Positions 1-19,178 of a stretch of DNA of 64,000 nucleotides are shown in pieces. Below the pieces are notes generated by a model. That model was not told where the DNA came from and made no database searches. It saw only the letters and a program-made list of their open reading frames with translations. The DNA is from a virus (taxonomy: Duplodnaviria; Caudoviricetes): the IMG/VR virus record IMGVR_UViG_3300021399_000133, positions 24,988 through 88,987 of that record. One strand, written 5' to 3'. Each line of letters begins with the position of its first letter. Positions within the stretch are counted from its first letter, which is position 1. The translations under genes and the position numbers were made by a program.

Positions 1-296
1 CTTCACTGAAGAAAAATGGCTTAGGTAAAATTGGTGAATCTGTTTATCAAAGTGGCAAACAGGGTGTAGCCGATGCAAACTATGTACTTCGTGCAAAAAA
101 TATTGCGAAGGCACAACAGCAAAATCTAGCTAACCGAGCTAAAGCAGCAGGTTTTGATAGTTATAAAGCATATCAAAAATCTGGTAAGGCAGGTATTGAT
201 TCACAGGCTGCAATTGCTCAGGCACAAAAGATAGGAGAACGAAATCAACTTTGGAAAGAAGCTGCTCAACAATGGCAAGCTAATCCTATAATTTAA
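1..296 (+). CDS. 3' part of a hypothetical Ala/Gln/Lys-rich protein (begins upstream of the window)
   Basis: Open frame from position 3 (SLKKNGLGKIGESVYQ...QQWQANPII) to TAA at 294-296; composition resembles the neighbouring orphan genes. Confidence 0.7.
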   Translation, partial: SLKKNGLGKIGESVYQSGKQGVADANYVLRAKNIAKAQQQNLANRAKAAGFDSYKAYQKSGKAGIDSQAAIAQAQKIGERNQLWKEAAQQWQANPII

Positions 297-302
297 TCTA
301 AA

Positions 303-1382
303 ATGAGTGAGATAGTTTATAGAGGTCTCAAACTTACCTCTCTTAAAGGTTGTAAATATTTTTCAGTTAAGGAGGGATCCATCTGCTCTTTGGTAGAAAA
401 TCCGTCTACATCAACACTAACCTTGACCTATACGAGTGGTAGTACTTCTCAATCTCTATCAACTGTTTTAGGAATTCCACAGGTCGGTAAAAGTGTAGAG
501 ATGTTACCAACCAATATAGCAAAACGATTCTCTACAACAACAGTGTCTCTGAATGGTTTGAAGTTAAGGAAAATGACTTCAGATACACATACGATCAATA
601 TTATTATTGTTAGTGATTCAGAGTCTAGAGTAGTTCAAACTTATAATTATACGACAATTGTAGTGTCTGACGAAGATGCTGAAAATGAAGAGTTTATCAA
701 TTATATATTCTATTCAGGTAACCTCACATATCTTCAGCCGGTGGGTCCTAAGCCTAAATGTTGGAAGTTTAGAAATTTTCCCAAGATCACTATAAAGGAT
801 AAAGATTTAGTTCTTGAATCTACTTCCACAACTGTTTATTCTCTTCGCCGTCGTTATGATGATTATGTTATTCGAGCAGTTGATTATCAAGACCAATTCA
901 TACTAGAGATCCGAAAAATTCTCAATGATTATGGCTTGGAACTTGTGAGAATGAACAAAGAAACTACTCTAACTAAAACTTCCCACGTTATTTATCAATT
1001 TTCTCAAACTCCGACAAAAATTCATAATCCTTTCTATGCCAATGAGCTAGATGAGGTTATAAGTCAGAGATTACCTGTCGAATTTTATCTTAGAGCGACA
1101 GATATGGTATTGTTCTTTGACTTTAAAAACAAGTATAATAATGTTGATCTCTTAACTAATTTCTGTGAGTTTAAAACGACAGATAAATATGGAAAGAGGT
1201 GGACAGCTGCAATAAAGTGGGGAGGAATAACAGAAGATTTCAATCACTTGTATCAGTCGGATGATAACTCTAATTTCTCGTTTCAGTGTTCTTTTAGATG
1301 TGAACTTTACTTTTATGAATGTATTGATTCGAGATATGAGTTCCTGCAAGAGATAATTTTAAATCTTGACTCAGATTTATGA
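303..1382 (+). CDS. Virion structural protein, possibly tail terminator/sheath stabiliser (T4 gp15-like C-terminal domain)
   Basis: 359-aa ORF. C-terminal pattern PVEFYLRATD...TAAIKWGGITEDF...FQCSFRCELYFY recalls tail-terminator folds; lies in the neck/sheath module. Family call is inference. Confidence 0.35.
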   Translation: MSEIVYRGLKLTSLKGCKYFSVKEGSICSLVENPSTSTLTLTYTSGSTSQSLSTVLGIPQVGKSVEMLPTNIAKRFSTTTVSLNGLKLRKMTSDTHTINIIIVSDSESRVVQTYNYTTIVVSDEDAENEEFINYIFYSGNLTYLQPVGPKPKCWKFRNFPKITIKDKDLVLESTSTTVYSLRRRYDDYVIRAVDYQDQFILEIRKILNDYGLELVRMNKETTLTKTSHVIYQFSQTPTKIHNPFYANELDEVISQRLPVEFYLRATDMVLFFDFKNKYNNVDLLTNFCEFKTTDKYGKRWTAAIKWGGITEDFNHLYQSDDNSNFSFQCSFRCELYFYECIDSRYEFLQEIILNLDSDL

Positions 1383-1756
1383 TAACTTTTAGACAGAAAA
1401 AGACGCTGGTTCAAGACTTAATGCCGGAAGCTATTCAATACCTGAAAGATAATGGCATTGATGTAAAGATTATAACTCCGAAGGAAGCTGACGCAGTCTC
1501 TAGGGTAAACTCTAAAGCTATGGTTCTAGTCTCCTTTAAGAAAAACGAGTTGGGTTATTATCAAATACAAGTTCAAGATAAGGAGTTATATAATTACACG
1601 CAAAAGTTAATCAGAGATATTCTTAGGATGAGAATTACAAATATCGATAGAGAGCATAGAGTGATTACTGCCGAATGTGATCATAAAGGCATTGCTCTTG
1701 ATATTATTGAGGTTCTCGCTAAGAAGTATGATTTATCAGTTGTTTATAAGAAATGA
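1379..1756 (+). CDS. Hypothetical protein with FRQK leader (MITFRQKK), small alpha/beta domain
   Basis: 125-aa ORF with ATGA-type overlaps to both neighbours; leader shared with nearby genes. Confidence 0.8.
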   Translation: MITFRQKKTLVQDLMPEAIQYLKDNGIDVKIITPKEADAVSRVNSKAMVLVSFKKNELGYYQIQVQDKELYNYTQKLIRDILRMRITNIDREHRVITAECDHKGIALDIIEVLAKKYDLSVVYKK

Positions 1757-2352
1757 TTAAGTTCAGACAAAAAACTTTCTCAGAGTATGATGCAATGAGA
1801 AGTTTATATGTTGAATTGATGAAGGATAAGTTTGCAAAGCAGAAATATGGTGTTATTGATTCTAGTGTTCTTATACCAGTACTGAAGGGAAACAATATAG
1901 TCATTGAACGCTTTGTAATATCTACATCATTCGCTCATAAAGATACTTATCGGATGTACCTTAAGATTGGAGCTAAAGCTAAGTTACCTGATGAAGTTAG
2001 ATTGCCTGGGAAAACTCAATATAAGCCCATTGGCGGTATTAACTTTAATCTTAGTGGATCAACTACTCAGAAACAATTTAGTGATGAAAGTTCTACGCCT
2101 CTATTTCGTCAAAAAGTATTCGGAGGAGGTGGAGGAGATAAGAAGAAAACATTCCCACTAGTTTCAGGTAACTATCAAGGTCCTAATGTCAACTTTGGTG
2201 TAGAAGTAACTAAGTTGTTAGGTGAAGCGATTAAGTATGATAAGAGAGAGCGTAGTCTGGTGTTGGAATTTGACAGTATTGAAGATGCTATTAAAGCTCT
2301 GAATATCCTTCCTTTTGGCATTAATTATAAGATATATTTACTTAACGCATGA
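1753..2352 (+). CDS. Hypothetical protein with FRQK leader (MIKFRQKTFS) and internal motif copies
   Basis: 199-aa ORF; internal QKQFS, FRQKVFG and KKTFP in a Gly-rich loop. Confidence 0.8.
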   Translation: MIKFRQKTFSEYDAMRSLYVELMKDKFAKQKYGVIDSSVLIPVLKGNNIVIERFVISTSFAHKDTYRMYLKIGAKAKLPDEVRLPGKTQYKPIGGINFNLSGSTTQKQFSDESSTPLFRQKVFGGGGGDKKKTFPLVSGNYQGPNVNFGVEVTKLLGEAIKYDKRERSLVLEFDSIEDAIKALNILPFGINYKIYLLNA

Positions 2353-2570
2353 TGAAGATAAAAAGATTCTCTGCCACTAAAATTCTTAACACAAATATGG
2401 GTTTAGGATTTAGACGTGGGCGGAAGTATGATACTGACTTAGATCGACTGGGTAGAATGGATACTTCGCAGAGAGAACTTTCTAGAGTCAATCAGTTAGG
2501 TAGTGAAATGAGGAAACTCAGATCAGAATTAAATAATGAGAGGTTAGGAATATGGCAACATACAGACTAA
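2349..2570 (+). CDS. Small basic hypothetical protein (MMKIKRFS leader variant)
   Basis: 73-aa ORF coupled to both neighbours. Confidence 0.7.
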   Translation: MMKIKRFSATKILNTNMGLGFRRGRKYDTDLDRLGRMDTSQRELSRVNQLGSEMRKLRSELNNERLGIWQHTD

Positions 2571-2884
2571 GAAGAAAAACATTTGGTATGGCAGATGCTG
2601 GTCAAAGAGCTGCTGGTGGTGCAATGGAGGGTATTGGAAAAACAATGGACTCTAACTTGGGTGGTGTTGCTGGTGGTATAGCCGGTGCTGCAACTGTCGG
2701 CTCTGCAATAGGTGCAGGTCTTGGCTCAGCAATAGGCTCAGTTGTTCCAGTTGTAGGTACAGCAATTGGTGGTACTGTTGGTGGAGCTCTCGGTACTGGT
2801 CTCGGTTATATGGCTGGCTCTAAAGTAACTAGAGGAGTCGGTCAAGCTCTTACTGAGTCTGGTCAGGATTTACAAGCAGTTTAA
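2552..2884 (+). CDS. Glycine-zipper membrane-type protein (MATYRLRRKTFG leader)
   Basis: 110 aa, dominated by GxxxG repeats (GGVAGGIAGAATVGSAIGAGLGSAIGSVVPVVGTAIGGTVGGALGTGLG). Confidence 0.75.
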   Translation: MATYRLRRKTFGMADAGQRAAGGAMEGIGKTMDSNLGGVAGGIAGAATVGSAIGAGLGSAIGSVVPVVGTAIGGTVGGALGTGLGYMAGSKVTRGVGQALTESGQDLQAV

Positions 2885-2888
2885 TATT

Positions 2889-3953
2889 ATGATAAGGTTT
2901 AGACAGAAAAATTATAATGCGGCTGCTATTATGACTGGACTGAATGTTCTTGGTTTGGGTGCTACTGGTGCTCAAATGATTCAAGCAGATCAACAAGGAA
3001 AAGAGCAAGAGGCACAGTCAAAAGCAATGGAAGAGCAGATGAAAAGACAAAACAAAGCACTAGAACGTATTGCCCGAAATTCCGCCAAGAATCCTAGAGC
3101 CGCACAACAAGCAGCCGAAGTTGTTTCTCAAAAAGGTTTTTCTAGTAAAGGACACTATATTCTAAAGAGATTTGGTGTTCCGGCCACTGCAGTAAAGAAT
3201 CTTTTTAGCTGGAATAATATAAAAGGCTTGGGAAAAGATTTAGGCAATGTTGTTTGGAATAATAAGAAAACTATTGCTGGATGGGGAACAATGGGAGCAG
3301 GTATTGCTGGTGGTTCTTATATTGCTAATAAGGCAATTCAAAATGATATGGAGAAACATGGAATTGAATTACCTAACAACAATCAACAAAAAGCTTATTC
3401 TGCTGAAGGAACCTTAATTGGTAACTCTTTTAAAACAGGTTTAGGCAAAATTGGTGGTGTTGCTAGTGGTTTAGGTTTTGGTGCAATATCTCCAACTATG
3501 TCTTATTTATCAGAACGCCAGGCTCTTATTGATCAAGCAAACCAAACACGACAGACAGCAAATAATACTAATACGCCTCCTAAATTTAGACAGAAGCAGT
3601 ATGGAATGGCTATGCCTTTGAGGAGTATTGCTAAAGGTTTTCGTGCTTTTAAAAGAAACCCAATGCAAAGTATATTAGGAACGGCTTCTTCCTTTTCTGG
3701 AACTGGTGGAGTGAAAGGATATAACAGTTTTGCAAATAGCTTAGCAAATTCAACTAACAGTGAATTATCTCAGGCTGCAGGTAATTGGTTGAAAAATCAT
3801 AAAACTTTAGGATTAGCTGGAACAACTGTAATAGGCGGTTCAGCCCTTGGAAGTGTTTATTCAGCCGGAGATAAAGCAGTTAGAGGAACAGCTAATGCAC
3901 TTGATCCAAATGCTTTCGCTTATGAAAACTCTAAACAGCAACAAATTCAGTAA
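2889..3953 (+). CDS. Gly/Ala-rich multi-segment protein with FRQK leader (candidate internal virion protein)
   Basis: 354 aa; MIRFRQKNYN leader plus four internal motif copies separating amphipathic Gly-rich segments. Confidence 0.75.
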   Translation: MIRFRQKNYNAAAIMTGLNVLGLGATGAQMIQADQQGKEQEAQSKAMEEQMKRQNKALERIARNSAKNPRAAQQAAEVVSQKGFSSKGHYILKRFGVPATAVKNLFSWNNIKGLGKDLGNVVWNNKKTIAGWGTMGAGIAGGSYIANKAIQNDMEKHGIELPNNNQQKAYSAEGTLIGNSFKTGLGKIGGVASGLGFGAISPTMSYLSERQALIDQANQTRQTANNTNTPPKFRQKQYGMAMPLRSIAKGFRAFKRNPMQSILGTASSFSGTGGVKGYNSFANSLANSTNSELSQAAGNWLKNHKTLGLAGTTVIGGSALGSVYSAGDKAVRGTANALDPNAFAYENSKQQQIQ

Positions 3954-3956
3954 GCT

Positions 3957-5579
3957 ATGATTAAATTTAAGCAAAAAGAATATAATGAGGCTGTCGGAGT
4001 AGGAAAGAAGGTTATCAATTTAATTAAAAAGAATCCACTTCAAACGGCAAGTCTTGGAGTTGCTACTGCTGGTTTAGGTGTTCAAGTACATAGATCTACT
4101 CGAGACAGAAGCTACCAAAAAGATCAGTTAAAAGCAATGAATAACCTTACAAATTCTCTTGGTAAAGTTGACAGATCTTTTAAAGACTTAGGAAAAAAGG
4201 AAGTTGACCGAGAGAAAAAAATGGATGATATGATGAAGAAATTTAGGCTCTTTTCTATTCAGGACGGTGGTTACAAAGGAGGCAAGCGTAGTGCCGGTGG
4301 TATTCGGCCGGTTTTAGTTGGTGCTGGTGTAGGTGGAGCCCTCGGCGGAATCATGGGTGGAGTTGGTGAAAAAACTTCAATAGGCGTCGGAGCATTAATT
4401 GGTGCTGGTCTTGGAGCATTTGTTGGCTGGATGTCTAGTTTGGCCGATAAGAGTGTTTTCAATACTGGTGGATCAACCAATGCAAACTCCTATCTCCTAA
4501 TTAAAGCCATTGAGGAAGCTTATCAGCCTAATTCTTATGATGAAGATGAAACGACTATCTCTGAAACTACAACTGACGAATATGGTCACAGTAGAACAGT
4601 AACAAGAAGAACACAGAATAACAAGAAAGAGGTACCAAATCCTAGGGGTATTGTCTTTGATGTTGATGGTGACCCGAGACGTTATGTAGTGTCAGTCCTT
4701 TATACTGGTAATGTTTTGGTTATGTTCATTAATAATCCAAACAATTATGAGTTAAGAACATTGAACACCCTTCTTGACAGTTATTGCTACGCATATAAGA
4801 ACGCAGACTATTATTCGAATAAAGTTTCTAAAAATGTTTATACTGTTGATGTTAATGTTGTGGCTGGTACTGAAACCTATCTTGCTCAAAAGATAATTGA
4901 AAGTGGTATCAAGATCAATATTGTAACAGGAAACAAATTTAATACAAAATTTAGACAGAAGAATAATAGTGTTTTAACTGATACTATTACTGGGGCTACG
5001 ATTGGTGCTACTGCTGGTGGTTTTACTGGTTCTGTATTTAGAGATAAAACTAAACAAGTTTTTGGAATAAATCAGAATAATAAAAACGGTGATCAGTTAG
5101 CAGCATTGGCAGCTATTGGAACTGGTACTATTATTGGAGCTGCTCTCGGTTTCTTAGGTGGATCTATTAAGGAGGTAGCTACTAAATACAATCGTAAAAA
5201 CAGTGTTGATCAAAGACTTATGAAGGACGTTGTTGAAAACCTTAAGAAATCTAATCTTAAGGAAGGTACACAATTTACTAGAGATCCGAAACAAGCAACT
5301 ACTCTTAAGACGAAGATTAGTATTGTAATTTCTAAGGTTTCTGGTGAGCTTCGTCTTTTGGTTAACACTGTTGCAGATCCTAAACTTGAGAGATTGACTA
5401 AGCAAATGGAGAAGAATATTCCTAACACTAGCGTAGTTAATCATCATGTATCAGATAAATTTAACGATATAACTATTTCAACAATATCAGATTCTTCAGC
5501 AGATTCTGGATTAATTGCAGGCATTGCAGAATTCTATATTCGCAACGGTTACCCAGTATATCTTGTTGAAGTAGGATAA
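3957..5579 (+). CDS. Glycine-zipper plus alpha/beta-domain protein with FRQK-type leader
   Basis: 540 aa; MIKFKQKEYN leader; two glycine zippers, each followed by a globular domain; internal KKFRLFS and KFRQKNNS. Confidence 0.75.
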   Translation: MIKFKQKEYNEAVGVGKKVINLIKKNPLQTASLGVATAGLGVQVHRSTRDRSYQKDQLKAMNNLTNSLGKVDRSFKDLGKKEVDREKKMDDMMKKFRLFSIQDGGYKGGKRSAGGIRPVLVGAGVGGALGGIMGGVGEKTSIGVGALIGAGLGAFVGWMSSLADKSVFNTGGSTNANSYLLIKAIEEAYQPNSYDEDETTISETTTDEYGHSRTVTRRTQNNKKEVPNPRGIVFDVDGDPRRYVVSVLYTGNVLVMFINNPNNYELRTLNTLLDSYCYAYKNADYYSNKVSKNVYTVDVNVVAGTETYLAQKIIESGIKINIVTGNKFNTKFRQKNNSVLTDTITGATIGATAGGFTGSVFRDKTKQVFGINQNNKNGDQLAALAAIGTGTIIGAALGFLGGSIKEVATKYNRKNSVDQRLMKDVVENLKKSNLKEGTQFTRDPKQATTLKTKISIVISKVSGELRLLVNTVADPKLERLTKQMEKNIPNTSVVNHHVSDKFNDITISTISDSSADSGLIAGIAEFYIRNGYPVYLVEVG

Positions 5580-5604
5580 TTAATTTCATATAATTAATAA
5601 TCAC

Positions 5605-7947
5605 ATGGCACAATGGATTAGAACTTCTGAGCCCTATATTAAGGTTCAGGAACAAATTCGCCAAGTTGCTCTTAACCCGGTTGCTGGCGAAGATCTTATT
5701 ATCGGTGTTGTTTTGATTTCTGACGCAGGTCCAGCAGCTCCTACTCTTATTTCTAATCAGTCGGAGTTCTTGGCAACTTATACTAGTCAGGACGTTACAC
5801 GCGATTATCTTGCTTCTCTGAATATGCTTTATAGTGGTGATGATTCCACTTTGGCTTCTCGGATGTGGGCAAATGGTTATCGTCTGGCCGGTTCTAATAC
5901 GCTTTTGGTAGTTCGTGCATCAAAGGCAAAAGATACTTTCTTTGCAAAACCGCTTCAGAAGGATGATCAAAATACTTATGTACTCCGTGATGGTGAGCTC
6001 CTGAAGTCCCTGCCAAAAGTAAAACTGGTATTGGATGTAAATGGAATGTCTGCTAGTCACGAAGGTACTGGTTGGGCTATTAATATCAGCGGTGTTGGTA
6101 TTTTTGGTAATCTCACAACAGATGAAGGTGCTCAATATGACTACTATGTTAATAACTTGGTAGACTTGGTAGAGAGCTTGAATGAAAGTTCTAAGTTTTA
6201 TTCTCCCTCTTTTGAGTTCTTCACTGATGCTGCCGCTCAAGAGAAGATTGACGTAAATAGTGACTCTTCGGATGCTGATAAGGCTAAGGTTGTGTCGGTT
6301 GTATTCAATGAGCTCTATCTTGGTTCTTATGTTCTTGACACTAGTGATCAGAGAGTTCCTGACGGTTTGGCTATGATGAACTTCTGCACGGGTGGCTCTT
6401 ATACTGCTGATACTATTATTGATATTAATGGTGCAGCTTGGTCCGGTTTTGAGCCTGCCGAGTTCTATGCTATTAATGCCAATAACTCAGCTACTACTCT
6501 TAGAGTTCGTATTCGTCGTTTCAATCATGATGCAGTTGTTCAGAAGGAATTGGCAGACTCTGAGGTATCTTCACTGACAGAAAGTGGCAAGTCTCCTTAT
6601 ACTGTTTTGACTGATGTTCTTGATACTTTCACACAGAAGGGAACAGTTGAACCAAGCGACTCTATTAAGGCTCGTGACTTCTTTGAGATTGCTGTATGGG
6701 ATCCAAGTGTAAATTCTGAGGTTAGCTTCTTTAACATTGGCAATATTACTGGTCGTGGTGATATGGAAGTTAGTGAGGTTAACAGTCTTATTCAGATGAT
6801 TCAGGTATCTCTCCCTGATGACCTCCATGATCTGGGTCTTAACTACTATGATTATGTTGAGGATGATAAGAAAACAGTTTATGTATGGGAAGAGGCAGAG
6901 CTCCCAGCAGGTGCATCAGCTGAACGTAAGACTACACTCCCAACGGCAAGTGAAGCATGGGTTGGTAAGTATGTAACTATTGATAATGGTGAAACTTACT
7001 TTACTTGTGTTAGTAATGAGGATCAACCCAATGGCGCAGGTCAACTTTATGCAAATCTGACTATTGATCCTACTGAGTCTAGCATTCTTGATATTAGTGA
7101 CTCTGATTTGAAGAAGGCTTTAGATGAGATTGTACTTGATGAGGTTTATACTGTTGAAGGTCTGTCCGATCTTGGTAATACAGAGCTTTCTTTCCAGAAC
7201 TATATGGCAAATGTAGCTATCAACAGCAACTACTTCTATCCAATTTCGACTGCTAATAGTACTAACTATATGACTATTGGTAATCAAGCAACTAAGATTC
7301 CACAGGATTCTTATAAGCTTTACATGTCGGCTCCTTGGGATATCGACTCTGGTACTCTTGGTTGGAAGTATTATGCATCTCCATCAGTTCTGTATTGGGA
7401 GGCTGTTGCTAGAAACCGTAGAAACAATGAAGAGTTTGCATCTATTCTTGGTTCTAGATACGGTGTAGTTCAGTATTCTCGTCCTGTTACTGAGTTTAAT
7501 AAGAAACAGCGTGAACTCCTTCTTAGCAAGCGAGTTAATACTGTGCTTTGGAATGTTCCTACTCAAGCTTGGAATATGAATGATTGCTTTACTAAGACTT
7601 CTCAGAATAACATCATGAACGAAGATGGTAATTCTCGTCTTGGTATTAGAATTGGCAAAGCTATTCCTATTCTCCTCAGACAGTTCATTGGTCGTAAGAT
7701 TAACCAGAAGATGTGTGATGAGATGCTTAGTGTTCTTGAGTACTGGTTCAAGACTACTATTCTTCCAATGGGTATTACTGTAGATGCTTATCAGATCTTC
7801 GTACCATATAAGGAGGAATTGGCTCGTCAGAATAAACAGCAAGTAACGGTTAATGTTAGATTCGCAAGATCGTTGAAGTATGTAAACGTTTATGAGGACT
7901 ACTATGATGTTGGCATGGATGTTTCTACAGACTATCACAATCTTTAA
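5605..7947 (+). CDS. Contractile tail sheath protein (paralog 1)
   Basis: 780 aa. N-terminal PTLISNQSEFLATY; C-terminal KKQRELLLSKRVNTV...SRLGIRI...VTVNVRFARSLKYVNV typical of sheath C-terminal domains; followed by a terminator-like hairpin. Confidence 0.85.
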   Translation: MAQWIRTSEPYIKVQEQIRQVALNPVAGEDLIIGVVLISDAGPAAPTLISNQSEFLATYTSQDVTRDYLASLNMLYSGDDSTLASRMWANGYRLAGSNTLLVVRASKAKDTFFAKPLQKDDQNTYVLRDGELLKSLPKVKLVLDVNGMSASHEGTGWAINISGVGIFGNLTTDEGAQYDYYVNNLVDLVESLNESSKFYSPSFEFFTDAAAQEKIDVNSDSSDADKAKVVSVVFNELYLGSYVLDTSDQRVPDGLAMMNFCTGGSYTADTIIDINGAAWSGFEPAEFYAINANNSATTLRVRIRRFNHDAVVQKELADSEVSSLTESGKSPYTVLTDVLDTFTQKGTVEPSDSIKARDFFEIAVWDPSVNSEVSFFNIGNITGRGDMEVSEVNSLIQMIQVSLPDDLHDLGLNYYDYVEDDKKTVYVWEEAELPAGASAERKTTLPTASEAWVGKYVTIDNGETYFTCVSNEDQPNGAGQLYANLTIDPTESSILDISDSDLKKALDEIVLDEVYTVEGLSDLGNTELSFQNYMANVAINSNYFYPISTANSTNYMTIGNQATKIPQDSYKLYMSAPWDIDSGTLGWKYYASPSVLYWEAVARNRRNNEEFASILGSRYGVVQYSRPVTEFNKKQRELLLSKRVNTVLWNVPTQAWNMNDCFTKTSQNNIMNEDGNSRLGIRIGKAIPILLRQFIGRKINQKMCDEMLSVLEYWFKTTILPMGITVDAYQIFVPYKEELARQNKQQVTVNVRFARSLKYVNVYEDYYDVGMDVSTDYHNL

Positions 7948-7956
7948 TTAATATAA

Positions 7957-8009
7957 GGAGGGATTTTATGATTTCGGAAGATTCGGGTTGTAAAGTCCCT
8001 CCCTATTTT
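7957..8009 (+). terminator. Intrinsic terminator-like hairpin after sheath 1
   Basis: GGAGGGATTTTATGA (7957-7971) pairs with TTGTAAAGTCCCTCC (7988-8002): 15 bp with 3 G:U, then CTATTTTC. Confidence 0.6.
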
Positions 8010-8095
8010 CTCTTACTCACTAGATAAAGAACTTTAGTAGTGCTATAGTTCTGAGTAAGATTATAGCAAATTGAACACGTAAAACTATTTCTAAC

Positions 8096-8845
8096 ATGGA
8101 TAAAGTCTTATTAACTGATCTTAAGAGGAAAGTATTTATTCGTACCTCTTTGATCGCTATTCCCTCTCTCGATGAAATTCTGGGGTTGAATGATTATCTT
8201 TCCGCAGATGAGATCCTGTTGGAAATATTTAAGAAAGCATTGAGAGAGTATGAAAACACGGTTCCTTTAATCCTTGAAATGAAAATTAACAAGGAGCAGA
8301 TGAGCACGTGTTATGGTATGGATGGATTCTTTGAAGTAAAATCTAACTTTACCCTATGGCTGGACTGTATGATATCGGAAGACCAGATTATTCTAGTTCC
8401 TAATTCTCTTCCACAATGGAGAATCTGTAGTAATGGACTTGGAACTTCCTCTTATCCTACTCCTGGCGCATGGACTTATTTTACTGAGTATAGAAAACCT
8501 TATCTCTTCATGGGGGATATGCCATCTGAGTACCAATTTTTTATGAGAGGTATCTGTTCTAGACCTATTGTACCCGACTTTAGACCAGATAAAACATTTA
8601 ATCCTGATTCTCAAAAAGCCGCTATCTATTGGCTTGATGTAGAGAATGGAGCAAGAGGTAATTTCTTTATGGACCTGGTAATGTGTCATGTATTAGACTA
8701 TATCAGACAGTTGAAAGCCTCTATAACATTACCAACTATGAGTGTAGATGTACTAGGAAACGTTGATGCTGCCTATCAGGATCTTAGACAAAGAACTGAG
8801 GCTTACATCTTACAATCTAGCTGGTATGGGGAACTTTTATACTAA
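8096..8845 (+). CDS. Putative neck/head-tail adaptor protein (T4 gp13-like)
   Basis: 249 aa; ILLEIFKKALREYENTVP helix pattern, size and position in the neck module. Inference. Confidence 0.45.
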   Translation: MDKVLLTDLKRKVFIRTSLIAIPSLDEILGLNDYLSADEILLEIFKKALREYENTVPLILEMKINKEQMSTCYGMDGFFEVKSNFTLWLDCMISEDQIILVPNSLPQWRICSNGLGTSSYPTPGAWTYFTEYRKPYLFMGDMPSEYQFFMRGICSRPIVPDFRPDKTFNPDSQKAAIYWLDVENGARGNFFMDLVMCHVLDYIRQLKASITLPTMSVDVLGNVDAAYQDLRQRTEAYILQSSWYGELLY

Positions 8846-8852
8846 GTTTATA

Positions 8853-9377
8853 ATGATAGTACAAAGACAAAGATGTTATACGGGCCTAGTAAAGAAAGTT
8901 TCGGCAAAGACTCAACGAAGTATATTAAATAAAGCTGAACAATTTTTTAAATCTAAGCCCGGCCAAACATATCTCAAACATCAACTAAAAGCAAGAGAAT
9001 CTGCCCTAGGAAAAGAACTATTAAAAAGATCTGGTAATGTAGAGTCTGGTATGGCTACATTAAGTGGAATAGTAAAGGGGGCTCCATATAATCCAGGAAA
9101 GACTACTAAAGAATTGATTGGTTATGGAATTAAACATCCAGAAGTAGCCTTTGGAGAAGCCGCAGACAAAGCGTTAGGTGTAATAGTGCCCGCCTATAAT
9201 GCTTCACCAGTACCCGTTGGAAAAGCTATTGCATTTGCTTATCCCACTAAAAATCGATATTTTAGATTGGCCGGTCAAAGATGGAATACAGGTGGCGCAG
9301 GAAGAGTCGTTGAACAAGGAATTAACTCAGCCGCTTTGAGTGCTGGGAGACTAGGAAATTCAATACCAATGTTATGA
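8853..9377 (+). CDS. Basic Gly/Ala-rich protein with leader variant MIVQRQRCYT
   Basis: Track ORF 8763..9377. ATG at 8853 follows the upstream stop (8845) and gives the family leader, so it is the likelier start. Confidence 0.7.
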   Translation: MIVQRQRCYTGLVKKVSAKTQRSILNKAEQFFKSKPGQTYLKHQLKARESALGKELLKRSGNVESGMATLSGIVKGAPYNPGKTTKELIGYGIKHPEVAFGEAADKALGVIVPAYNASPVPVGKAIAFAYPTKNRYFRLAGQRWNTGGAGRVVEQGINSAALSAGRLGNSIPML

Positions 9378-10615
9378 TTAAATTTAGACAAAAACAGTAT
9401 ACAATTCAAGAAGGTCATTATACTGGACCTAAAGATATTGATAAAGTCCCTGGCGCAGTAGAAGTAATAGCAAAGACGGCTGGGGCAGGAGCAGGCCTTG
9501 GAGCTGTTGTATCGACAGTTCTTAAAGATACCTCTATGATTGAAGGTGCATTGACAGGAGGTAAATGGGGAGCCGTTGGTGGTGTTCTTCTTAAGCTCTT
9601 TCTCAATTATCTTCACAACCCAATGACAAGAGTTAAGTATCAAGAGGTAGATAAAAACATTCGTCGATCTTTTGGTGTATTTCAAGTTTCTGGTGTAACA
9701 GTCGGTGATTCTATTTCAAAGAGAGCTAGTATTGATGAGAAGTTTAGTTTTAATGATAGGAACGTAACTTCCTATAAACTCAACTTTGCAGTGGCTGATG
9801 ATACTATTACTATGTACACTTTTGGAATGACTAATAAAGAGCTGGTGGATACTTCTAACATTCTTGATTACTATACTAAAAAATATTCAGGTATGAGTTA
9901 TTCATCTAAGTTGTTAAACCAGAAGATGAATTCTTATGCTGTTGATATAGTATTCACTAACTATCAGGTCATTTCTAATTTTATCCTGGAGTTGTCTGAA
10001 AAGTTGCTTACTAAGATTAATCTCCTCGACAACAAAGTAATAGTAACAAATCGCCTTGCATCAACTCTTCCCGCAGATTTAGAGGATGAAGAGAAGACAT
10101 TTTCAGAACCACAAGCCCTTAACAAATATGACTTGATGAAGGTTTTAGGTAAGGGAGGTGCTCAGGCTCTTGGAAACATTAAGCAGGGTTTCAATGCTTC
10201 TATGGGATTTGCTTTACTTGGTATGATTCAGGAGGGTCTTAAGAAGATTGGTATGGATGACCTAGTTAAATCAGGAATGCCAGCACCACGTGAAGCCTTT
10301 GGTAATTCATATCTTAAGGATGCTCTCAATAAACTTTACTATATTGAGGGAGTTCATTATACGATAGGTGACAAGACTGCTCCAGATAACATCTCTATGG
10401 TTAACGGTTTGTTTATTGTCACTATTCAGAAAGACGACAAGAAGAAAGTTGATGCAGTAGATAATAATTTCTATAAAGCTGCCCAAAGGAGTATCAAGAG
10501 GACGGATTCAGGAAAGGTTATTGTCTATACTTATTCAATTAGGTCCAGACAGGAGATGGAATTCTTGTTAAAGAAACTCATGTCAACTAAAATAACCTTT
10601 AATATATTTGAGTGA
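9374..10615 (+). CDS. Glycine-zipper plus alpha/beta-domain protein with FRQK leader; paralog of 3957..5579
   Basis: 413 aa; MIKFRQKQYT. Domain pattern M....EL.....LD.Y...Y....Y.S......Y.VD and L.K....EG..[FY]T are shared with 3957..5579. Confidence 0.75.
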   Translation: MIKFRQKQYTIQEGHYTGPKDIDKVPGAVEVIAKTAGAGAGLGAVVSTVLKDTSMIEGALTGGKWGAVGGVLLKLFLNYLHNPMTRVKYQEVDKNIRRSFGVFQVSGVTVGDSISKRASIDEKFSFNDRNVTSYKLNFAVADDTITMYTFGMTNKELVDTSNILDYYTKKYSGMSYSSKLLNQKMNSYAVDIVFTNYQVISNFILELSEKLLTKINLLDNKVIVTNRLASTLPADLEDEEKTFSEPQALNKYDLMKVLGKGGAQALGNIKQGFNASMGFALLGMIQEGLKKIGMDDLVKSGMPAPREAFGNSYLKDALNKLYYIEGVHYTIGDKTAPDNISMVNGLFIVTIQKDDKKKVDAVDNNFYKAAQRSIKRTDSGKVIVYTYSIRSRQEMEFLLKKLMSTKITFNIFE

Positions 10616-10616
10616 T

Positions 10617-10988
10617 ATGGTTATTCTACGGCAAAAAATTTATTCACAGAAAAAGACAGCAATGATCAGTCGAATTACAAACAAATTGGATAGAGAGAGA
10701 ATTGAGGATTATGATGTTTATGATTATGTTCCAAAAGATTCTATCTCAGTTACTGGTGATCTTGATAATTTTGCTATTTATCTACCCAGGGAATTTGAAT
10801 ATAGTCAGTATAGGATTGATGATAAGATTCGCTCCTTGGCACCACACATTAGAACAACTACTATTTCGGAGCGTGGTTTCTTTATTATGAAACTTTCCTC
10901 CAAGCTTACAGAAGATCAGCTATATAAATTAATTAAGTTTATTATAGCCGAAGAGGAATTCTGTGTTATAGTAGATATGGACGAATAA
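10617..10988 (+). CDS. Hypothetical alpha/beta protein with leader MVILRQKIYS
   Basis: Track ORF starts at TTG 10608; ATG 10617 gives the family leader. Confidence 0.75.
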   Translation: MVILRQKIYSQKKTAMISRITNKLDRERIEDYDVYDYVPKDSISVTGDLDNFAIYLPREFEYSQYRIDDKIRSLAPHIRTTTISERGFFIMKLSSKLTEDQLYKLIKFIIAEEEFCVIVDMDE

Positions 10989-11001: not shown

Positions 11002-11439
11002 ATGGCTTCAGAAAATATGATTGGTAGCGCCCTAGACAAAGCCAATAAACTCTATGCTATTGGAATGAAGGCGATCAAACTTCAGCTTAAATTGTTAGGG
11101 ACGGATTTTGTAGTGCTAAGACCTAAGGATAATTCAAAATGGAAAAATGTCTTTGGTGGCTCCTATTCATCTGACAGCACTCTTGAAAATGACTATGATC
11201 AGTTTACGACAAGACTCATAGTAAATCTAAATGATATGAGAGATGTATGGAATAGAAACCGGGATACCATTGATTCTTATACTCCTGATGGTTCTTTAAA
11301 GGTTGGTGATGAGTTACAATACACTAGAAATAAAAGAACTTATCGATTTAAGATCATCATGAAACAAGGCTTTTCAGAGGATGCCGATGTTCTCTATTCC
11401 TACACCTTATCTAGCATAATCGAAACTTTGGATGAATGA
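11002..11439 (+). CDS. Putative head-closure/neck protein (T4 gp14-like)
   Basis: 145 aa; LLGTDFVVLRP...VFGGSYSSD...LKVGDELQY pattern of head-closure beta-barrels. Inference. Confidence 0.5.
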   Translation: MASENMIGSALDKANKLYAIGMKAIKLQLKLLGTDFVVLRPKDNSKWKNVFGGSYSSDSTLENDYDQFTTRLIVNLNDMRDVWNRNRDTIDSYTPDGSLKVGDELQYTRNKRTYRFKIIMKQGFSEDADVLYSYTLSSIIETLDE

Positions 11440-14400
11440 TTCGTTTGTAAAAGGTTGTGAAGGATATACACGACCAGAAGAAATTGCTGCCCTATCCAAG
11501 TTTTTAGGTGAGGTTAAGGCAGTACAGGAAGACTATATTGAAAAGTTTGGACTGGATAATGAACCTGATCAAATGCTAGGAGAAAATCCAAATATCAAAC
11601 TAGACAATTATGGGTCTATCTATTCAGCAGATGGGATTAAACCAGAAATAGCACTAGGAGATAAGGTAGATAAAAACAGTCAGGGAATAAAACCAGAACC
11701 AAGTCTAAGTCAAAGTCGTCTAGACATTAACCCTAACCCTACAGAACCTACTAGCCTATCTGATTATCTTGAACTTTTGGAAGGAGCAGAGGAAAACAAT
11801 CAACTCTCTAATACTAAAGTTAAAATTCCCGGTACCAGAGAAGATATTGGTTTAGATAATACAAGGATTAATCTCTCTGACATAAAGGAGGTTGATCTGG
11901 ATAATACTAGGGTTAACCTCACGGATACAAGAGATGCTAATCTGGATGACACTAGAATTAATCTCACCAATATAAAAGATGTTGATCTAGATAATACAAG
12001 GGTTAATCTCTCTGACATAAAGGACGTTAATCTGGATAATACTAGGGTTGATATTGATGGTTATAAAGATATTTCCCTCTCTGATACTAGATTAGGTCTC
12101 GGTGGTGTTAGAACGGATGCTGAATTATCGAACGAAGTGTCAAAGCTCCCAGATAATTTTGTAACTCCTTCAAGTCCAAGTGAAGATAAACCAGATATAC
12201 CAGGGGAGATTAATAATGATAATAAATTAGATATACCAGGTGAAATTAATGATGTTCCACTAAGTGATTATCTAGAGGCATTAAATCCAGATAAAGATAT
12301 AGCACTTCCTGATGTAAAGATTGAGTTAAAAGATGATACTAAAACAAATCTTGATAATACTAGGATTGAGCTTAATGTTGCTGATTTTAACGAGCTCTCT
12401 GAAACTAGACTTGATTTAACAGTACCAGAGACAGAGAAGCTTAGTGATCACATCGAGAGCCTGCGTGTTGAATCTACGGCCGAATTAGGAACGACGTTAT
12501 TAGGGGTACCGGGAGAAACAAAAGATCAGGTACTAGGGGATTACGTCGAGAAATTACGGCCGGAAGATAACACTGAACTTTCCGATGTAACTATTCCATT
12601 ACATATCAACGAAAATAACGAGCTCTCAGATAAAATTATTAACCTCAATCCACCTAAAACAGAGTTAAACCTAGATGAAACGAGAATTAATATTAAAGAT
12701 GATAAAGAAAATAAACTCTCAGAAACTAGGATTGGTCTTGAGGTCGCAGAAGATACCGAACTCTCTCAAACACGTCTAGATTTACATGACACTTCTAACG
12801 TAAAAGAGCTTAGTGATCACATCGAGAGCCTAAGAAACGTAGATGACAAGGATGAATTAAGCCAGACAGTAATAGGATTAGACGTTGAAGAAAACATAAG
12901 CCTCTCTGATACTATCCTACATAAACCGGGGGAAGAACAAGAAAACAAACTTCCCGAAACTAGGATTGACTTAGATGAAGTTCCAGAGGTTGAATTAGGA
13001 GATCACATTGAAGAGCTGAAGGGTGGAGAATTTCAAGAACCTAAGCTGGAGGAAAAGGTTGAGAAGTTAAATGGAATTCCCGATAATAAACTAGGTGAAG
13101 ATAAATTAAATATACCAGGCGAGATAAAAGAAGTAGACCTAAATGATATAAAGCTCAACATTACACCAAAGGAAGTAGAACTCTCAAATGTTAGGCTCGA
13201 TATATCACCGGCCTCTATTGAATCTCTTCCTGATACTAGATTAGATATTACGCCGGAAGAAGTCACGAGCCTAAATTCCACGAGAGTAGAGTTAGGTGGT
13301 GAATTACCTAGCCCAGAATTATCAGAAGTAGTTTTGGGTATTGATGGAACTCTGCCGGAAAATAAGTTAGAGGATAAGGTATTAAATATTTCGCCAGAGG
13401 GTGTAAATTCTCTTCCCGATACTAGGCTTGATATTACACCTAAAGAAGTAGAACTAGATCAAACAAGACTAGATATTTCGCCAGAGGAGGTTGAATTGCC
13501 TGACGTAAGACTCGACATTACACCAAAGGACGTAGAACTCCAAGATGTAAGACTAGATATTACGCCGAAAGAGGTAGAACTTCCGAATGTTAGGCTTGAT
13601 ATTTCACCAGAGGATGTAAATACCTTGCCGAATACTAGACTTGATATTGCTCCGAAGGATGTAGAATTAGACCAAGCTAGACTACAACTGAATCCTTCTC
13701 CCAGTGATGTTGAATTACCAGAAGCAGTCCTAGGTATCGAAACAGAGGATATTCCATTAAGTGACACTATTCTTGAACTCTCGCCTGATAAGAACGATTC
13801 GACAAGAAAGACAGACACAGAGCTTAATGATAGAAAAATCGAACATGAATTACCAGGAACATTACGAGAGGAGGAGCTAGAGAATTATGTAGATCCCCGG
13901 CCGAGTTCATTTCAAGAAGATGATTCAGAGAAGGTATTTAATGAAAGAAAGGTTAAGTATAATATTCCTGAGGAGATCAAAGAGCCAAGTCTTACTACCT
14001 ATATTGATGAACTTGCAAGGGATTCAAATAGTTCTGAGGCAAAAACAGATGAAACATTTGAAGATAGACGCATTCTCTCAGTACCAGGAACATTACGAGA
14101 GGAGGAGCTAGAGAATTATGTAGATCCCCGGCCAATTGATCCTGACCCTAACCACAACATTGAATCCTTAGAAGACTCAATTCTACAACAACCTGAGAAT
14201 ACAAATGAGGAAGTTGAGGAGCTTAATGATGTAATCTTAGAGAGGCCAAGAGAGGAAGGAGAAAGAAATTTTGAACAAGAATCGGAGAGTAGATTTAATA
14301 ATAATTCTGCTGTTCTTCTCCATGCTGATGAAAACGATAATGTTGCTCGGGCGAAGTTGATGGTTCTTGATAGTCTGAATAATACAAGTGATGATGAGTT

Positions 14401-16003
14401 ATTTAATACTGTCATTGGCTTAACTTATCAGACAGACGGAAGTAGAAGCGATTTTGACAAGAAAATAGGAGGATTGATTACATCTTATCTTAGCTCACCA
14501 ATTTTAAGTGAAGATAGAAGTATTGAATTCCAAGATCGATTCGCTAAAGCATTCAATCTCCCCGACTATGTAAACTCTAATGGTCGAAATTGGATTAGAG
14601 ACACAGCAGAGAAAGCTAAAAAACTTGGTTCAAGCCCTCAAAGTAGACGTGAACTCCTTGAAACTACTCTATGGCTCTTATTATCAGCTAGAGATGCAGC
14701 AACGGAAATAATGGGTGTATCTAAATCATCATTACCAGGCGGAGCATCTCAGGCTATGGTAAATGCATCACAAGCTTTACTAGGAGAAAAGACCGTTGGA
14801 GAAGCTATTGGTAGTTCTCTTAAGAGTGCTGCTACTAGTGCTTTAAAGACAGGGGTTAGTTCTTTACTTGGTGGAAGTCCTAGTCACCCTAATCCTCAAA
14901 ACTATCCAGAAGTTCAAAGAATCGGTGGTGTAATATCGACAGGAATTATTGAAACGAAGGGATGGGAAAACGGTAACATGAGACCTTTTTCACCTGGCGA
15001 AGGAATGGGTGGGGGGTTTATGAATGCTCTTAAGTCGGTAGGTCAACAGCTTCTAAAAAGTGTAGCTGGCGATCTTTTAACTAGTAGACCTTATAAATTC
15101 AAAAAACATTACCTTAGCTCTAGCGGAATCAAGAAAACGCTTAAGGATCTCTGTTTTAACTATAATCCCGGGTCAGTAGAAGAGTTGCAGGAATGTCTTA
15201 GACTTAGCCCTTATATTACTACTCCTACTAAATTTGGATCTGTCAAAGACAAATATAGTGCAATGACTCTCGACTCTAATGCTTATTGGGAAGTAGTCTT
15301 AGAGCCTTTCGTTAATAATAAAATGAATGGTGGATTTAGTTACCTCCCATCGATTCAAGAGTTTAATAAGAAAAATATAGAGGAGCACGGAGTTAATACT
15401 GGCTATGATATTTGGATTCCTATTAATGGCTTTGACTTACAGAAATCTAAGACTATCTCCAAAACACTTGATCTCTACGACGGTGAAATATCCTATCCTG
15501 TATCATCAGAATTAAATAATGAGCTTAAATTGACGATAGTAGATGACCAATATAAAACCTGGAAAAGATACTTTGAAACCTGTGCACAAGTGGCAGTATA
15601 TAATTCAACTCCACATCAGATTGGTTATTATAGCTCTACAGGACTTATGATAGAAACTACTAACGTCGATAAAACTAATATATGTGTTGCTCTTTATAAA
15701 AACGTTACCTTTAGATGCAGAATTTATATCATGACACCACAGTTTTCAACAGTTAGATACTATGATCTCCTAGTTGTTCTTAAGGATTATGCTGAGGAAT
15801 ATTCAGGAGAGGTTGATTCGGGTGGGACTGATTTAAATGTTAACTTCTCTATTGTTGGTCAAAATCCAGTTAGTAATGCTGTCAGTGTTTCAAATAAGCA
15901 GAACAAAAAAATTGGATTTGTAGCAAACATGGCAGAATATAAGGTGAAGAAGGTAACAAGTGCAATACAAAAGAAAGCAACTACTCTCATTAGCATCTTA
16001 TAA
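11432..16003 (+). CDS. Large acidic repeat protein with C-terminal tail-tube-like (gp54/gp48-type) domain
   Basis: 1523 aa. About 900 aa of acidic 14-15-aa repeats; C-terminus (YWEVVLEP...ELKLTIVDDQYKTWKRYFE...DLNVNFSIVG) parallels the tube protein pattern at 18524..19111. Confidence 0.6.
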   Translation: MNDSFVKGCEGYTRPEEIAALSKFLGEVKAVQEDYIEKFGLDNEPDQMLGENPNIKLDNYGSIYSADGIKPEIALGDKVDKNSQGIKPEPSLSQSRLDINPNPTEPTSLSDYLELLEGAEENNQLSNTKVKIPGTREDIGLDNTRINLSDIKEVDLDNTRVNLTDTRDANLDDTRINLTNIKDVDLDNTRVNLSDIKDVNLDNTRVDIDGYKDISLSDTRLGLGGVRTDAELSNEVSKLPDNFVTPSSPSEDKPDIPGEINNDNKLDIPGEINDVPLSDYLEALNPDKDIALPDVKIELKDDTKTNLDNTRIELNVADFNELSETRLDLTVPETEKLSDHIESLRVESTAELGTTLLGVPGETKDQVLGDYVEKLRPEDNTELSDVTIPLHINENNELSDKIINLNPPKTELNLDETRINIKDDKENKLSETRIGLEVAEDTELSQTRLDLHDTSNVKELSDHIESLRNVDDKDELSQTVIGLDVEENISLSDTILHKPGEEQENKLPETRIDLDEVPEVELGDHIEELKGGEFQEPKLEEKVEKLNGIPDNKLGEDKLNIPGEIKEVDLNDIKLNITPKEVELSNVRLDISPASIESLPDTRLDITPEEVTSLNSTRVELGGELPSPELSEVVLGIDGTLPENKLEDKVLNISPEGVNSLPDTRLDITPKEVELDQTRLDISPEEVELPDVRLDITPKDVELQDVRLDITPKEVELPNVRLDISPEDVNTLPNTRLDIAPKDVELDQARLQLNPSPSDVELPEAVLGIETEDIPLSDTILELSPDKNDSTRKTDTELNDRKIEHELPGTLREEELENYVDPRPSSFQEDDSEKVFNERKVKYNIPEEIKEPSLTTYIDELARDSNSSEAKTDETFEDRRILSVPGTLREEELENYVDPRPIDPDPNHNIESLEDSILQQPENTNEEVEELNDVILERPREEGERNFEQESESRFNNNSAVLLHADENDNVARAKLMVLDSLNNTSDDELFNTVIGLTYQTDGSRSDFDKKIGGLITSYLSSPILSEDRSIEFQDRFAKAFNLPDYVNSNGRNWIRDTAEKAKKLGSSPQSRRELLETTLWLLLSARDAATEIMGVSKSSLPGGASQAMVNASQALLGEKTVGEAIGSSLKSAATSALKTGVSSLLGGSPSHPNPQNYPEVQRIGGVISTGIIETKGWENGNMRPFSPGEGMGGGFMNALKSVGQQLLKSVAGDLLTSRPYKFKKHYLSSSGIKKTLKDLCFNYNPGSVEELQECLRLSPYITTPTKFGSVKDKYSAMTLDSNAYWEVVLEPFVNNKMNGGFSYLPSIQEFNKKNIEEHGVNTGYDIWIPINGFDLQKSKTISKTLDLYDGEISYPVSSELNNELKLTIVDDQYKTWKRYFETCAQVAVYNSTPHQIGYYSSTGLMIETTNVDKTNICVALYKNVTFRCRIYIMTPQFSTVRYYDLLVVLKDYAEEYSGEVDSGGTDLNVNFSIVGQNPVSNAVSVSNKQNKKIGFVANMAEYKVKKVTSAIQKKATTLISIL
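11848..12090 (+). repeat. Tandem 45-nt (15-aa) coding repeats, DNTR[IV]NLxDxK[DE]V[DN]L
   Basis: About five imperfect units visible in protein and DNA (gataatac(t/a)agg...). Confidence 0.85.
13135..13690 (+). repeat. Tandem 42-45-nt (14-15-aa) coding repeats, LP[DN][TV]RLDI[ST]P[KE][ED]VE
   Basis: About a dozen imperfect units in the translation. Confidence 0.85.
13851..14133 (+). repeat. Perfect 52-bp direct repeat (13851-13902 and 14082-14133)
   Basis: TACCAGGAACATTACGAGAGGAGGAGCTAGAGAATTATGTAGATCCCCGGCC occurs twice, encoding PGTLREEELENYVDPRP. Confidence 0.95.
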
Positions 16004-18540: not shown

Positions 18541-19111
18541 TCTTGTTCGCTCGGCAGGTGGTTATATGGACTTTGTTGACTATATCGGCTATGTACGTGA
18601 TGACAACAAAGAGTTCCTGAGAGGTGATATGTGGGAGTTTTCATTTATCAACCCTCCCAGAATTGTTTACTATCCCGGCGATATTATCTTTAAGACCCGA
18701 CTCACTAATGTTAATATTTCTGTTAACACTAGTACTAATGGTTTTGAGAAGAGAATGCGTGGCAACTATACTCTCTATCAGAAGACGGGTCAGCTTACAA
18801 ACGGCCAACTTGCTCTGACCTTCACTGATAAGGAGGATCAAGCTATTTCTTACTTCACTGATGATTGGAGACAGAAAATTGCCGATCGTGATACTAAGTA
18901 CTCATTTAGAAAGGATGACTTGGTAGCTGATTGCGAGATGTACTATACTAACTCTTCTCGTAAAGCAGTTCGCCACCTTACTTTCTTCAACTGTATTATT
19001 GATGATGCACCACTGGATCTTAATGGTGTAGCTGAAGATGGTACAGACCGCGCAGATGTTCAACTTTCTATGAGCTTTGAACATTACGACGTTGAGTGGC
19101 TTAATGTCTAA
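18524..19111 (+). CDS. Tail tube protein (T4 gp19-like)
   Basis: 195 aa; RGDMWEFSF...GQLALTFTDKEDQAISYFTDDW...FFNCI...VQLSMSFEHY; high-expression codon bias; followed by a terminator. Confidence 0.85.
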   Translation: MAAVRDLVRSAGGYMDFVDYIGYVRDDNKEFLRGDMWEFSFINPPRIVYYPGDIIFKTRLTNVNISVNTSTNGFEKRMRGNYTLYQKTGQLTNGQLALTFTDKEDQAISYFTDDWRQKIADRDTKYSFRKDDLVADCEMYYTNSSRKAVRHLTFFNCIIDDAPLDLNGVAEDGTDRADVQLSMSFEHYDVEWLNV

Positions 19112-19118
19112 ATAAAAT

Positions 19119-19178
19119 AGGGAAGGATAGAAGACTTTGATAATAAATTCAGGGTTAACTGTCCTTCCCTCCTTTTTT
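19119..19178 (+). terminator. Intrinsic terminator after the tube gene
   Basis: AGGGAAGGATAG pairs with CTGTCCTTCCCT (19159-19170), followed by CCTTTTTT. Confidence 0.75.

Follow-up and report, generated by a model that had tools for sequence, protein, structure and literature searches.

A set of about 26 genes on a contig of an uncultured gut jumbo phage begins with variants of one leader peptide of 9-11 residues. We propose, at a probability of about 0.68, that this leader is a propeptide like the capsid-targeting sequence (CTS) of bacteriophage T4, reportedly described by Mullaney and Black in 1996, and that it contains the site which the prohead protease encoded by the phage itself would recognise and cut; the ~26 tagged proteins would be the substrates of this enzyme. 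The stretch of DNA analysed, hereafter the window, comprises 64,000 nucleotides (bases 24988-88987) of one 88,987-bp IMG/VR virus contig, which is classed as linear and ~24% complete. The idea of a T4 CTS-like tag came from a first-pass annotation of the window and has gained support in silico from the restriction of the leader to one block of genes, from the presence of its core on proteins of capsid maturation and from a gp21-fold protease encoded nearby.

Leader sequence and its restriction to the morphogenesis block

The eight leader-bearing starts listed in that annotation, together with a looser ninth, were all found where it had placed them (Table 1), each ATG lying at or just past the upstream stop. 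The ninth (2349) is a true member, its orthologues having MIILRRKTYS and MILLRNRNFS, and the first (1379) is a degenerate one whose orthologues have MINFRKKKY and MITFKRKTF. The size of the set, however, had been understated. Simple gene calling over the full contig, with the starts in the window checked by a listing of open reading frames (ORFs), placed ~17 further leader genes in the 25 kb upstream of the window, which gives ~26 on the contig, none of them past window position 10988. With the aromatic residue as the anchor of the alignment, the leaders have the consensus M-I-x-[LFI]-[RK]-[QR]-K-x-[FY]-[S>G,T,N], and across 247 leaders of this phage and its relatives that residue stands at position 9 in 53%, at 11 in 18% and at 8 in 12%.

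The string F[RK]QK occurs nine times in plus-strand coding frames within 1379-10988 (five times at residue 4 and three times internally) and is essentially absent, in six frames, from the rest of the 89-kb contig. For a loose core, [RK]-x-[FY]-[STGN], the background rate is 0.0045 per residue; 8 of the region's 12 genes have this core at residues 5-12, against ~0.5 expected. A position-specific scoring matrix (PSSM) gave 23 N-terminal hits at a score of at least 14, versus 0.05 expected from shuffled proteins, and 12 internal hits at a score of at least 10, for which shuffles predict 1.9 hits of any kind. All PSSM hits, N-terminal and internal, lie before window position 10988. The statement that sheath, tube and baseplate genes lack the leader is true insofar as no gene past 10988 has it; of these genes, only that of the 780-aa protein (5605-7947) can be named, as sheath-like, from language-model and structure look-alikes, PHROGs having given nothing for the others.

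As had been noted, the leader codons vary synonymously (Ser at +1 as TCT, TCA, TCG or AGT; Lys as AAA or AAG; Arg as AGA, CGA, CGT or CGG; Phe as TTT or TTC), and the 25 nt 5' of the leader starts have nothing in common. A DNA or RNA signal was therefore ruled out. When the leader is removed, only three similar pairs remain among the 26 proteins (E < 0.01), a result that excludes paralogy of whole genes. Since the mature parts are unrelated, the leader is a module on unrelated proteins and not a trace of paralogy, and this, together with the synonymous variation, indicates that selection is on the peptide. A Sec or lipoprotein signal was discarded because most leaders are not followed by a hydrophobic region.

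Searches of IMG/VR recovered 3 loci with the sheath-like protein and 78 with the capsid protein as query. Across the 78 loci, orthologues of the window leader genes that are 24-76% identical retain the leader, and their substitutions keep its pattern. One complete relative (353,025 bp with terminal repeats, 100% complete), to which G001 coordinates refer, was fetched whole. Its leaders (score at least 10) are on 23 of the 50 ORFs of one 43-kb head/tail block versus 0 of the 414 elsewhere (Fisher p = 2e-25), so that the motif is not common on non-virion genes; had it been equally common there, the first-pass annotation would have counted its idea as refuted. A neutral regular expression for the core yielded 24 N-terminal hits in the block versus 4.0 expected, and 15 versus 15.2 in the rest of that genome. 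The tagged set turns over, about half of the contig's tagged genes being without homologue in the complete relative. This relative also holds, at G001 288118-293798 (L098), a cassette of some ten genes with leaders, flanked by two tail-region genes, the place of which is just an 80-nt gap in this contig (window 19111-19192).

Many of the recovered relatives are contigs of 350-400 kb from gut samples and are probably relatives of the 'Jug' phages of Bacteroides/Phocaeicola. The clade to which they thus appear to be related is reported at ~1% of human gut metagenome reads (PMC12880540), and a keyword search of that paper's text met no mention of such a motif. Our literature search found no publication that describes the shared-leader system, and megablast of the region's DNA against the GenBank phage collection gave zero matches.

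The core motif inside proteins and a gp21-fold protease

Leaders are interchangeable with sites inside proteins (hereafter a slash marks the predicted or known bond). The 413-aa and 123-aa genes of the window (9374-10988) are a single 535-aa gene in the complete relative (G001 278667-280274), in which the leader of the 123-aa gene, MVILRQKIY/S, aligns to an internal AFKKKKLF/S. Similarly, residues 331-540 of the 540-aa protein are a stand-alone gene (202 or 227 aa) in two relatives, one of them at L004:3805-4413. These orthologues start with MIKFRQKQF/G and MIKFKRKEF/S, which align to the internal TKFRQKNN/S of the 540-aa protein, and the 540-aa gene is, as judged from this alignment, a fusion of two cargo modules. 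Internal sites of two other proteins lie within otherwise unalignable linkers and are conserved there, as [KR]-x-F-small in 22 of 25 orthologues of the 199-aa protein and as [KR]-x-[FY]-small in all 35 of the 354-aa protein. Because leaders and inter-domain sites replace each other, the motif seems to be first of all a processing site; the interchange would be hard to explain unless the motif served to free the downstream module. These fusions and fissions also show cargo being shuffled as modules.

The first-pass annotation had suggested looking for the core on maturation proteins, and K-x-[FY]-S is indeed present in the capsid protein, in two scaffold-like proteins and in the protease, at the positions expected for maturation. 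A tblastn search linked the 487-aa capsid protein to an annotated major capsid protein (27% identity, E 1e-6), and the top Foldseek matches of its model are the capsid proteins of phages P1, S6 and T4, with template modelling (TM) scores of ~0.2. Its K42-x-F44-S45 and K65-x-F67-S68 show no variation among 24 sequences that are 64-88% identical, a shallow alignment because the homologue search listed close, unannotated relatives only. By analogy, these two sites within the first 67 residues would be where T4-type capsid propeptides end. The capsid protein of Escherichia coli phage IME392 was ruled out as a source of the motif, its N-terminal region having no K-x-F-S. Profiles Gp23 and Portal_T4 gave zero matches in the contig and the complete relative; the labels 'portal' for a 566-aa protein and 'terminase' for a 627-aa protein are therefore guesses.

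The gene before that of the capsid protein encodes a 739-aa protein with 32% Asp+Glu, a net charge of -197 and 13 regularly spaced [RK]-x-[FY]-[S/A/N] sites, and the 286-aa protein preceding it has six such sites. From its composition the 739-aa protein looks like an extreme acidic scaffold destined for degradation, or a precursor of internal peptides. In the complete relative the orthologue is 929 aa long.

The candidate protease is a 409-aa protein with 181 homologues among 1.8 billion representatives. Its model (predicted local distance difference test, pLDDT, 86) consists of an N-domain (1-188), disordered linkers and a helical C-domain. The top Foldseek match of the N-domain is T4 gp21 (5jbl, E 4.5e-4), and VIA likewise gave T4 gp21 (Z 11.1, root-mean-square deviation 2.6 Å over 131 residues), followed by herpesvirus assemblins (Z 7-8). 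By hhalign, H49 and S135 fall on the catalytic H85 and S140 of T4, at a probability of only 39%. S135 is 99% conserved, and a distant subfamily has two invariant residues, His49 and Ser126, at the corresponding positions. Four candidate sites (Y192/S, F205/S, F233/S and Y254/S) stand at the edges of the low-pLDDT linkers, and at three of them [FY]-S is kept in 80-90% of 120 homologues of no more than 20-49% identity. Searches with phmmer of the protease and the capsid protein against solved structures returned chance matches only, and Pfam gave nothing for ten distant protease homologues. Just upstream of the protease gene (L001:18044-18226) there is a 60-aa ORF with a lipoprotein-like signal (MKKAVISLFCLLTLSVVLGSC).

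A query with the single homologue P0066 gave no distant protease locus, and an alignment query was used instead. It recovered two loci of the distant subfamily, L104 and L105 (36% identical to the subfamily's lead sequence; IMG/VR contigs of 68 kb and 201 kb). Their neighbouring genes have different leaders, such as MIQFDQETRQF/S, MNLIEYTKLF/S, MSYYTYIPETRSF/S and MNRLIQRIF/S, and many small genes nearby share the family MI-x-F-D-Q-E-T-R-x-F-S / M-x-L-I-E-Y-T-K-x-F. The core [KR]-x-[FY]-[STGA] is kept, with 10 and 6 N-terminal hits versus ~1.5 expected. The core thus travels with the protease family, and the part upstream of it is lineage-specific and, in these distant lineages, acidic. The basic chemistry attributed to the leader therefore holds for this lineage but not as a general trait, since the acidic leaders of distant relatives have the same [KR]-x-[FY]-S core.

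Predicted bond, proposed mechanism and rival explanations

T4-type prohead proteases are the textbook enzymes that cut after Glu, and T4 gp21 cuts at [LI]-x-E. The protease of phage SPN3US cuts at A-X-E/S (PMC10052503), gp23 of phage P1 is cut at ...MLE/SVAAEM (PMC9024508, read against the P1 sequence) and herpes assemblins cut at V-x-A/S (PMC4498786). The known sites of this clan share a conserved position P3, a free P2, a conserved position P1 and a small P1', and K-x-[FY]/S matches this register. A canonical Glu site hidden just past the leader is improbable, as most leaders lack one (any Glu occurs within 10 residues in 10 of 23 and [LIVA]-x-E in 6 of 23) and the one element common to all putative substrates is free of Glu. 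Because the motif fits the P3-x-P1/Ser layout and no Glu downstream of the leaders is shared, the cut is most likely between the aromatic and the small residue, that is after Phe/Tyr and not after Glu. A Phe/Tyr-Ser specificity has probably not been reported for this enzyme family.

The mechanism that we propose would begin with a serine protease domain of the gp21/herpes-assemblin fold, fused to a helical scaffold-like domain, which would recognise [LFI]-[RK]-[QR]-K-x-[FY] followed by S, G or T and cut there. The same core would mark the capsid propeptide, the linkers of the protease itself and the acidic scaffold-like protein, which would end up as peptides. As a leader it would mark ~26 mostly small, basic and mutually unrelated proteins for processing inside the prohead, and it would probably also bring this cargo into the core of the prohead, for instance through an interaction with the protease-scaffold or with the acidic scaffold, as the T4 CTS and P1 DarB suggest. 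The cargo would then stay as internal proteins, some with glycine-zipper membrane segments, and leave with the DNA. We infer cleavage, scissile bond, targeting role, virion residence and ejection; the roles of the leader as an 'address' and of the proteins as 'internal' or 'ejected' are drawn by analogy with T4 and phage P1. We would give even odds to the wider proposal that a branch of the gp21/assemblin clan switched position P1 from Glu/Ala to Phe/Tyr and co-evolved with a portable tag of 9-12 residues, serving a fast-turning-over, capsid-loaded and host-injected arsenal in abundant uncultured gut jumbo phages and in distant lineages.

Several observations weigh against the leader being such a propeptide. 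The phage members of the clan that were checked (T4, P1 and SPN3US) cut after Glu and the assemblins after Ala, so that cutting after an aromatic residue is a prediction. In the 354-aa family the aromatic residue can be followed by F, V or W instead of a small residue, and the aromatic residue is lost at the internal site of the 540-aa fusion (KFRQKNN/S), which may no longer be cut. Besides the low hhalign probability, the Peptidase_S77 profile (PF03420) has no match at E <=10 in the contig or the complete relative; for both reasons the 409-aa enzyme is, as modelled, related to S77 in structure but outside the sequence family. With a pLDDT of 51, the capsid model is too poor for the start of the fold to be placed directly after residue 67. 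Tagged genes flank the sheath-like gene and lie among tail as well as head genes, and gene position alone therefore does not indicate 'head'. Finally, no cultured relative was found, and the presence of the tagged proteins in virions is a prediction.

The motif copies in the capsid, scaffold and protease proteins might instead be assembly contacts, with the leader as an uncut docking or loading peptide that binds the scaffold, the capsid interior or the portal, like encapsulin cargo-loading peptides or the DarB signal of phage P1. Such a peptide would suit a cargo that is mostly basic facing a scaffold-like protein of charge -197, an upstream part that is lineage-specific, as a co-evolving binding surface would be, and an aromatic residue whose spacing from Met1 is fixed (position 9 in 53% of leaders). 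We nevertheless regard it as unlikely, given that the motif is found in the disordered linkers that join domains in the protease and in fused cargo, has 13 copies in the scaffold-like protein, lies where capsid propeptides would be removed and copies the P3-x-P1-Ser layout of the clan's known cleavage sites.

Cutting by another enzyme seems quite improbable. A mimicked host protease of the Prp type would agree with the site, as Prp likewise cuts after Phe before a small residue (PMC5744158), but profile PF04327 had no match, and no Prp-like gene is thus present, in the phage genome of the complete relative. The phage's own 524-aa protein has a weak Zn_peptidase_2 match (L001:7831-9402, E 8.5e-4, below the cut-off), yet it is without homologue in the complete relative, where leaders occur. 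Moreover, it is in the linkers of the gp21-fold protease that the motif is conserved, across 23-50% identity, and it is that protease family which it follows into distant lineages. A role unrelated to the virion, as a membrane or secretion signal, an N-degron or a nascent-peptide or mRNA element controlling late-gene translation, is very improbable. The hydrophobic or glycine-zipper segments right after the leader of a few members, and the co-orientation of all members as late-type genes, could be read in this way. However, polar or acidic sequence follows most leaders, codons vary freely behind unrelated upstream DNA, identical internal motifs without a start codon align to leaders of split orthologues, and the motif is common to capsid, scaffold and protease proteins.

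If the leader is the propeptide that we propose, the tag by itself would make the 'ejectome' of these phages readable from sequence, giving a list of the proteins that probably lie inside the heads of uncultured jumbo phages; in each genome, more than 20 orphan genes could be relabelled from 'hypothetical' to 'probable capsid cargo'. A branch with an aromatic residue at position P1 would extend the range of specificities known for the whole gp21/assemblin clan, and the leader would suggest a short tag for loading proteins, possibly foreign ones, into large capsids.

Genes of the block and comparison with known systems

Table 1. Tagged genes of the window and associated features of the contig (a slash marks the predicted bond)
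Feature	Position	Strand	Leader as read	Remarks
174-aa gene, 3' part	window 1..296	+		starts 228 nt before the window; double leader MASTFTLKRKLY/S ... RIKLF/S
125-aa gene	window 1379..1756	+	MITFRQKK	degenerate leader MITFRQKKTL; aromatic missing (orthologues K-K-Y or K-T-F)
199-aa gene	window 1753..2352	+	MIKFRQKTFS	MIKFRQKTF/S; internal PLFRQKVF/G at residue 123 (nt 2119-2121)
73-aa gene	window 2349..2570	+	MMKIKRFS	short leader MMKIKRF/S; full leaders in orthologues
110-aa glycine-zipper protein	window 2552..2884	+	MATYRLRRKTFG	11-residue leader MATYRLRRKTF/G
354-aa basic protein	window 2889..3953	+	MIRFRQKNYN	net +24; MIRFRQKNY/N; internal PKFRQKQY/G at residue 238 (nt 3600-3602)
540-aa glycine-zipper protein	window 3957..5579	+	MIKFKQKEYN	MIKFKQKEY/N; internal TKFRQKNN/S (residues 330-338, nt 4944-4970)
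780-aa sheath-like protein	window 5605..7947	+		without leader, inside the block
249-aa conserved protein	window 8096..8845	+		without leader, inside the block
174-aa basic protein	window 8853..9377	+	MIVQRQRCYT	net +18; MIVQRQRCY/T
413-aa protein	window 9374..10615	+	MIKFRQKQYT	MIKFRQKQY/T; conserved internal EEKTF/S at residue 243
123-aa protein	window 10617..10988	+	MVILRQKIYS	MVILRQKIY/S
Protease-scaffold fusion, 409 aa	contig 18606-19835			6.4 kb upstream of the window; structure match
Scaffold-like protein, 739 aa	contig 20717-22936 (L002:2717-4936)			gene before capsid, upstream of the window
Capsid protein, 487 aa	contig 22951-24414			just upstream of the window; most conserved gene of the block
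524-aa protein	L001:7831-9405			weak zinc metallopeptidase match

Net charge is positive in 20 of the 26 tagged proteins, many of them at +10 to +32, and several of those in the window have glycine-zipper segments. No recognisable family was found for the tagged proteins in PHROGs or Pfam or, for the 413-aa one, in a protein atlas, which gave nothing usable. For the nine window proteins and their neighbours, PHROGs and Pfam returned only glycine-zipper and tape-measure-like low-complexity matches.

Right after the capsid region (window 303-1382) lies the gene of a conserved 359-aa protein with K-Y-F-S at residues 18-21, which is probably not a site because relatives have Gln in place of its Ser. 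The tagged block is closely followed (window 11432-16003) by the gene of a very acidic 1523-aa protein with a net charge of -135, many tandem repeats of the type D-x-T-R-[IVL]-x-L and no leader. Two peptidoglycan hydrolases, both without leader, are located among the tagged genes (L001:6323-7012 and L001:11795-12598); they are an Amidase_3 and a muramidase with a PG-binding domain, the PHROG of the latter being filed under 'head and packaging'.

The nearest parallel in form is the T4 CTS, present on the internal proteins IPI-III and Alt and removed by the gp21 prohead protease (PMC9026906, PMC9958956). In both systems several proteins that are small, basic and unrelated to each other begin with a leader of ~10 residues, which ends in a motif also found on the capsid propeptide and the scaffold, and the proteases share a fold in which the catalytic His and Ser align. 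They differ in the site, which is [LI]-x-E/ in T4 and a predicted K-x-[FY]/S here, and in the number of tagged genes (~4-6 versus ~26). In addition, the protease here is fused to a scaffold-like domain through candidate cleavable linkers and has no detectable sequence similarity to S77, and leader removal and targeting, known in T4, are predictions here.

Giant phages of the phiKZ/SPN3US type (SPN3US gp245, A-X-E/S; PMC10052503, PMC5694885) are comparable in having jumbo myovirus heads in which a gp21-like protease processes many internal or ejection proteins. SPN3US also shows several sites per propeptide, a preference for Ser at P1' and a cargo set that turns over between relatives. Its propeptides, however, are long and varied with no uniform 9-residue leader, its position P1 is Glu and most of its head proteins (42) are uncut. 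Herpes pUL26 (PMC4498786) resembles the candidate protease in its architecture, a protease of the same fold at the N-terminus, a flexible linker with self-cleavage sites (R and M) and a C-terminal helical scaffold domain, and in sites of the form P3-x-P1/Ser/Thr, but it has Ala at position P1, a Ser-His-His triad and no family of N-terminally tagged cargo.

The capsid protein described here is structurally nearest to the head of phage P1, where an N-terminal signal in the Dar/DarB system is sufficient to load cargo into the head (PMC9024508); that signal has ~30 residues and is not a shared motif, and P1 gp23 is cut after Glu. In staphylococcal phage 80alpha the capsid and scaffold proteins mimic the L27 site that host Prp cuts after Phe (PMC5744158), so that both proteins begin with a common short leader that is cut between Phe and a small residue, as predicted here. 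Unlike the present case, the enzyme is a host cysteine protease, only the capsid and scaffold are tagged and the motif is LNLQFF/AS, with the Gln register shifted relative to our leader, in which basic residues are required.

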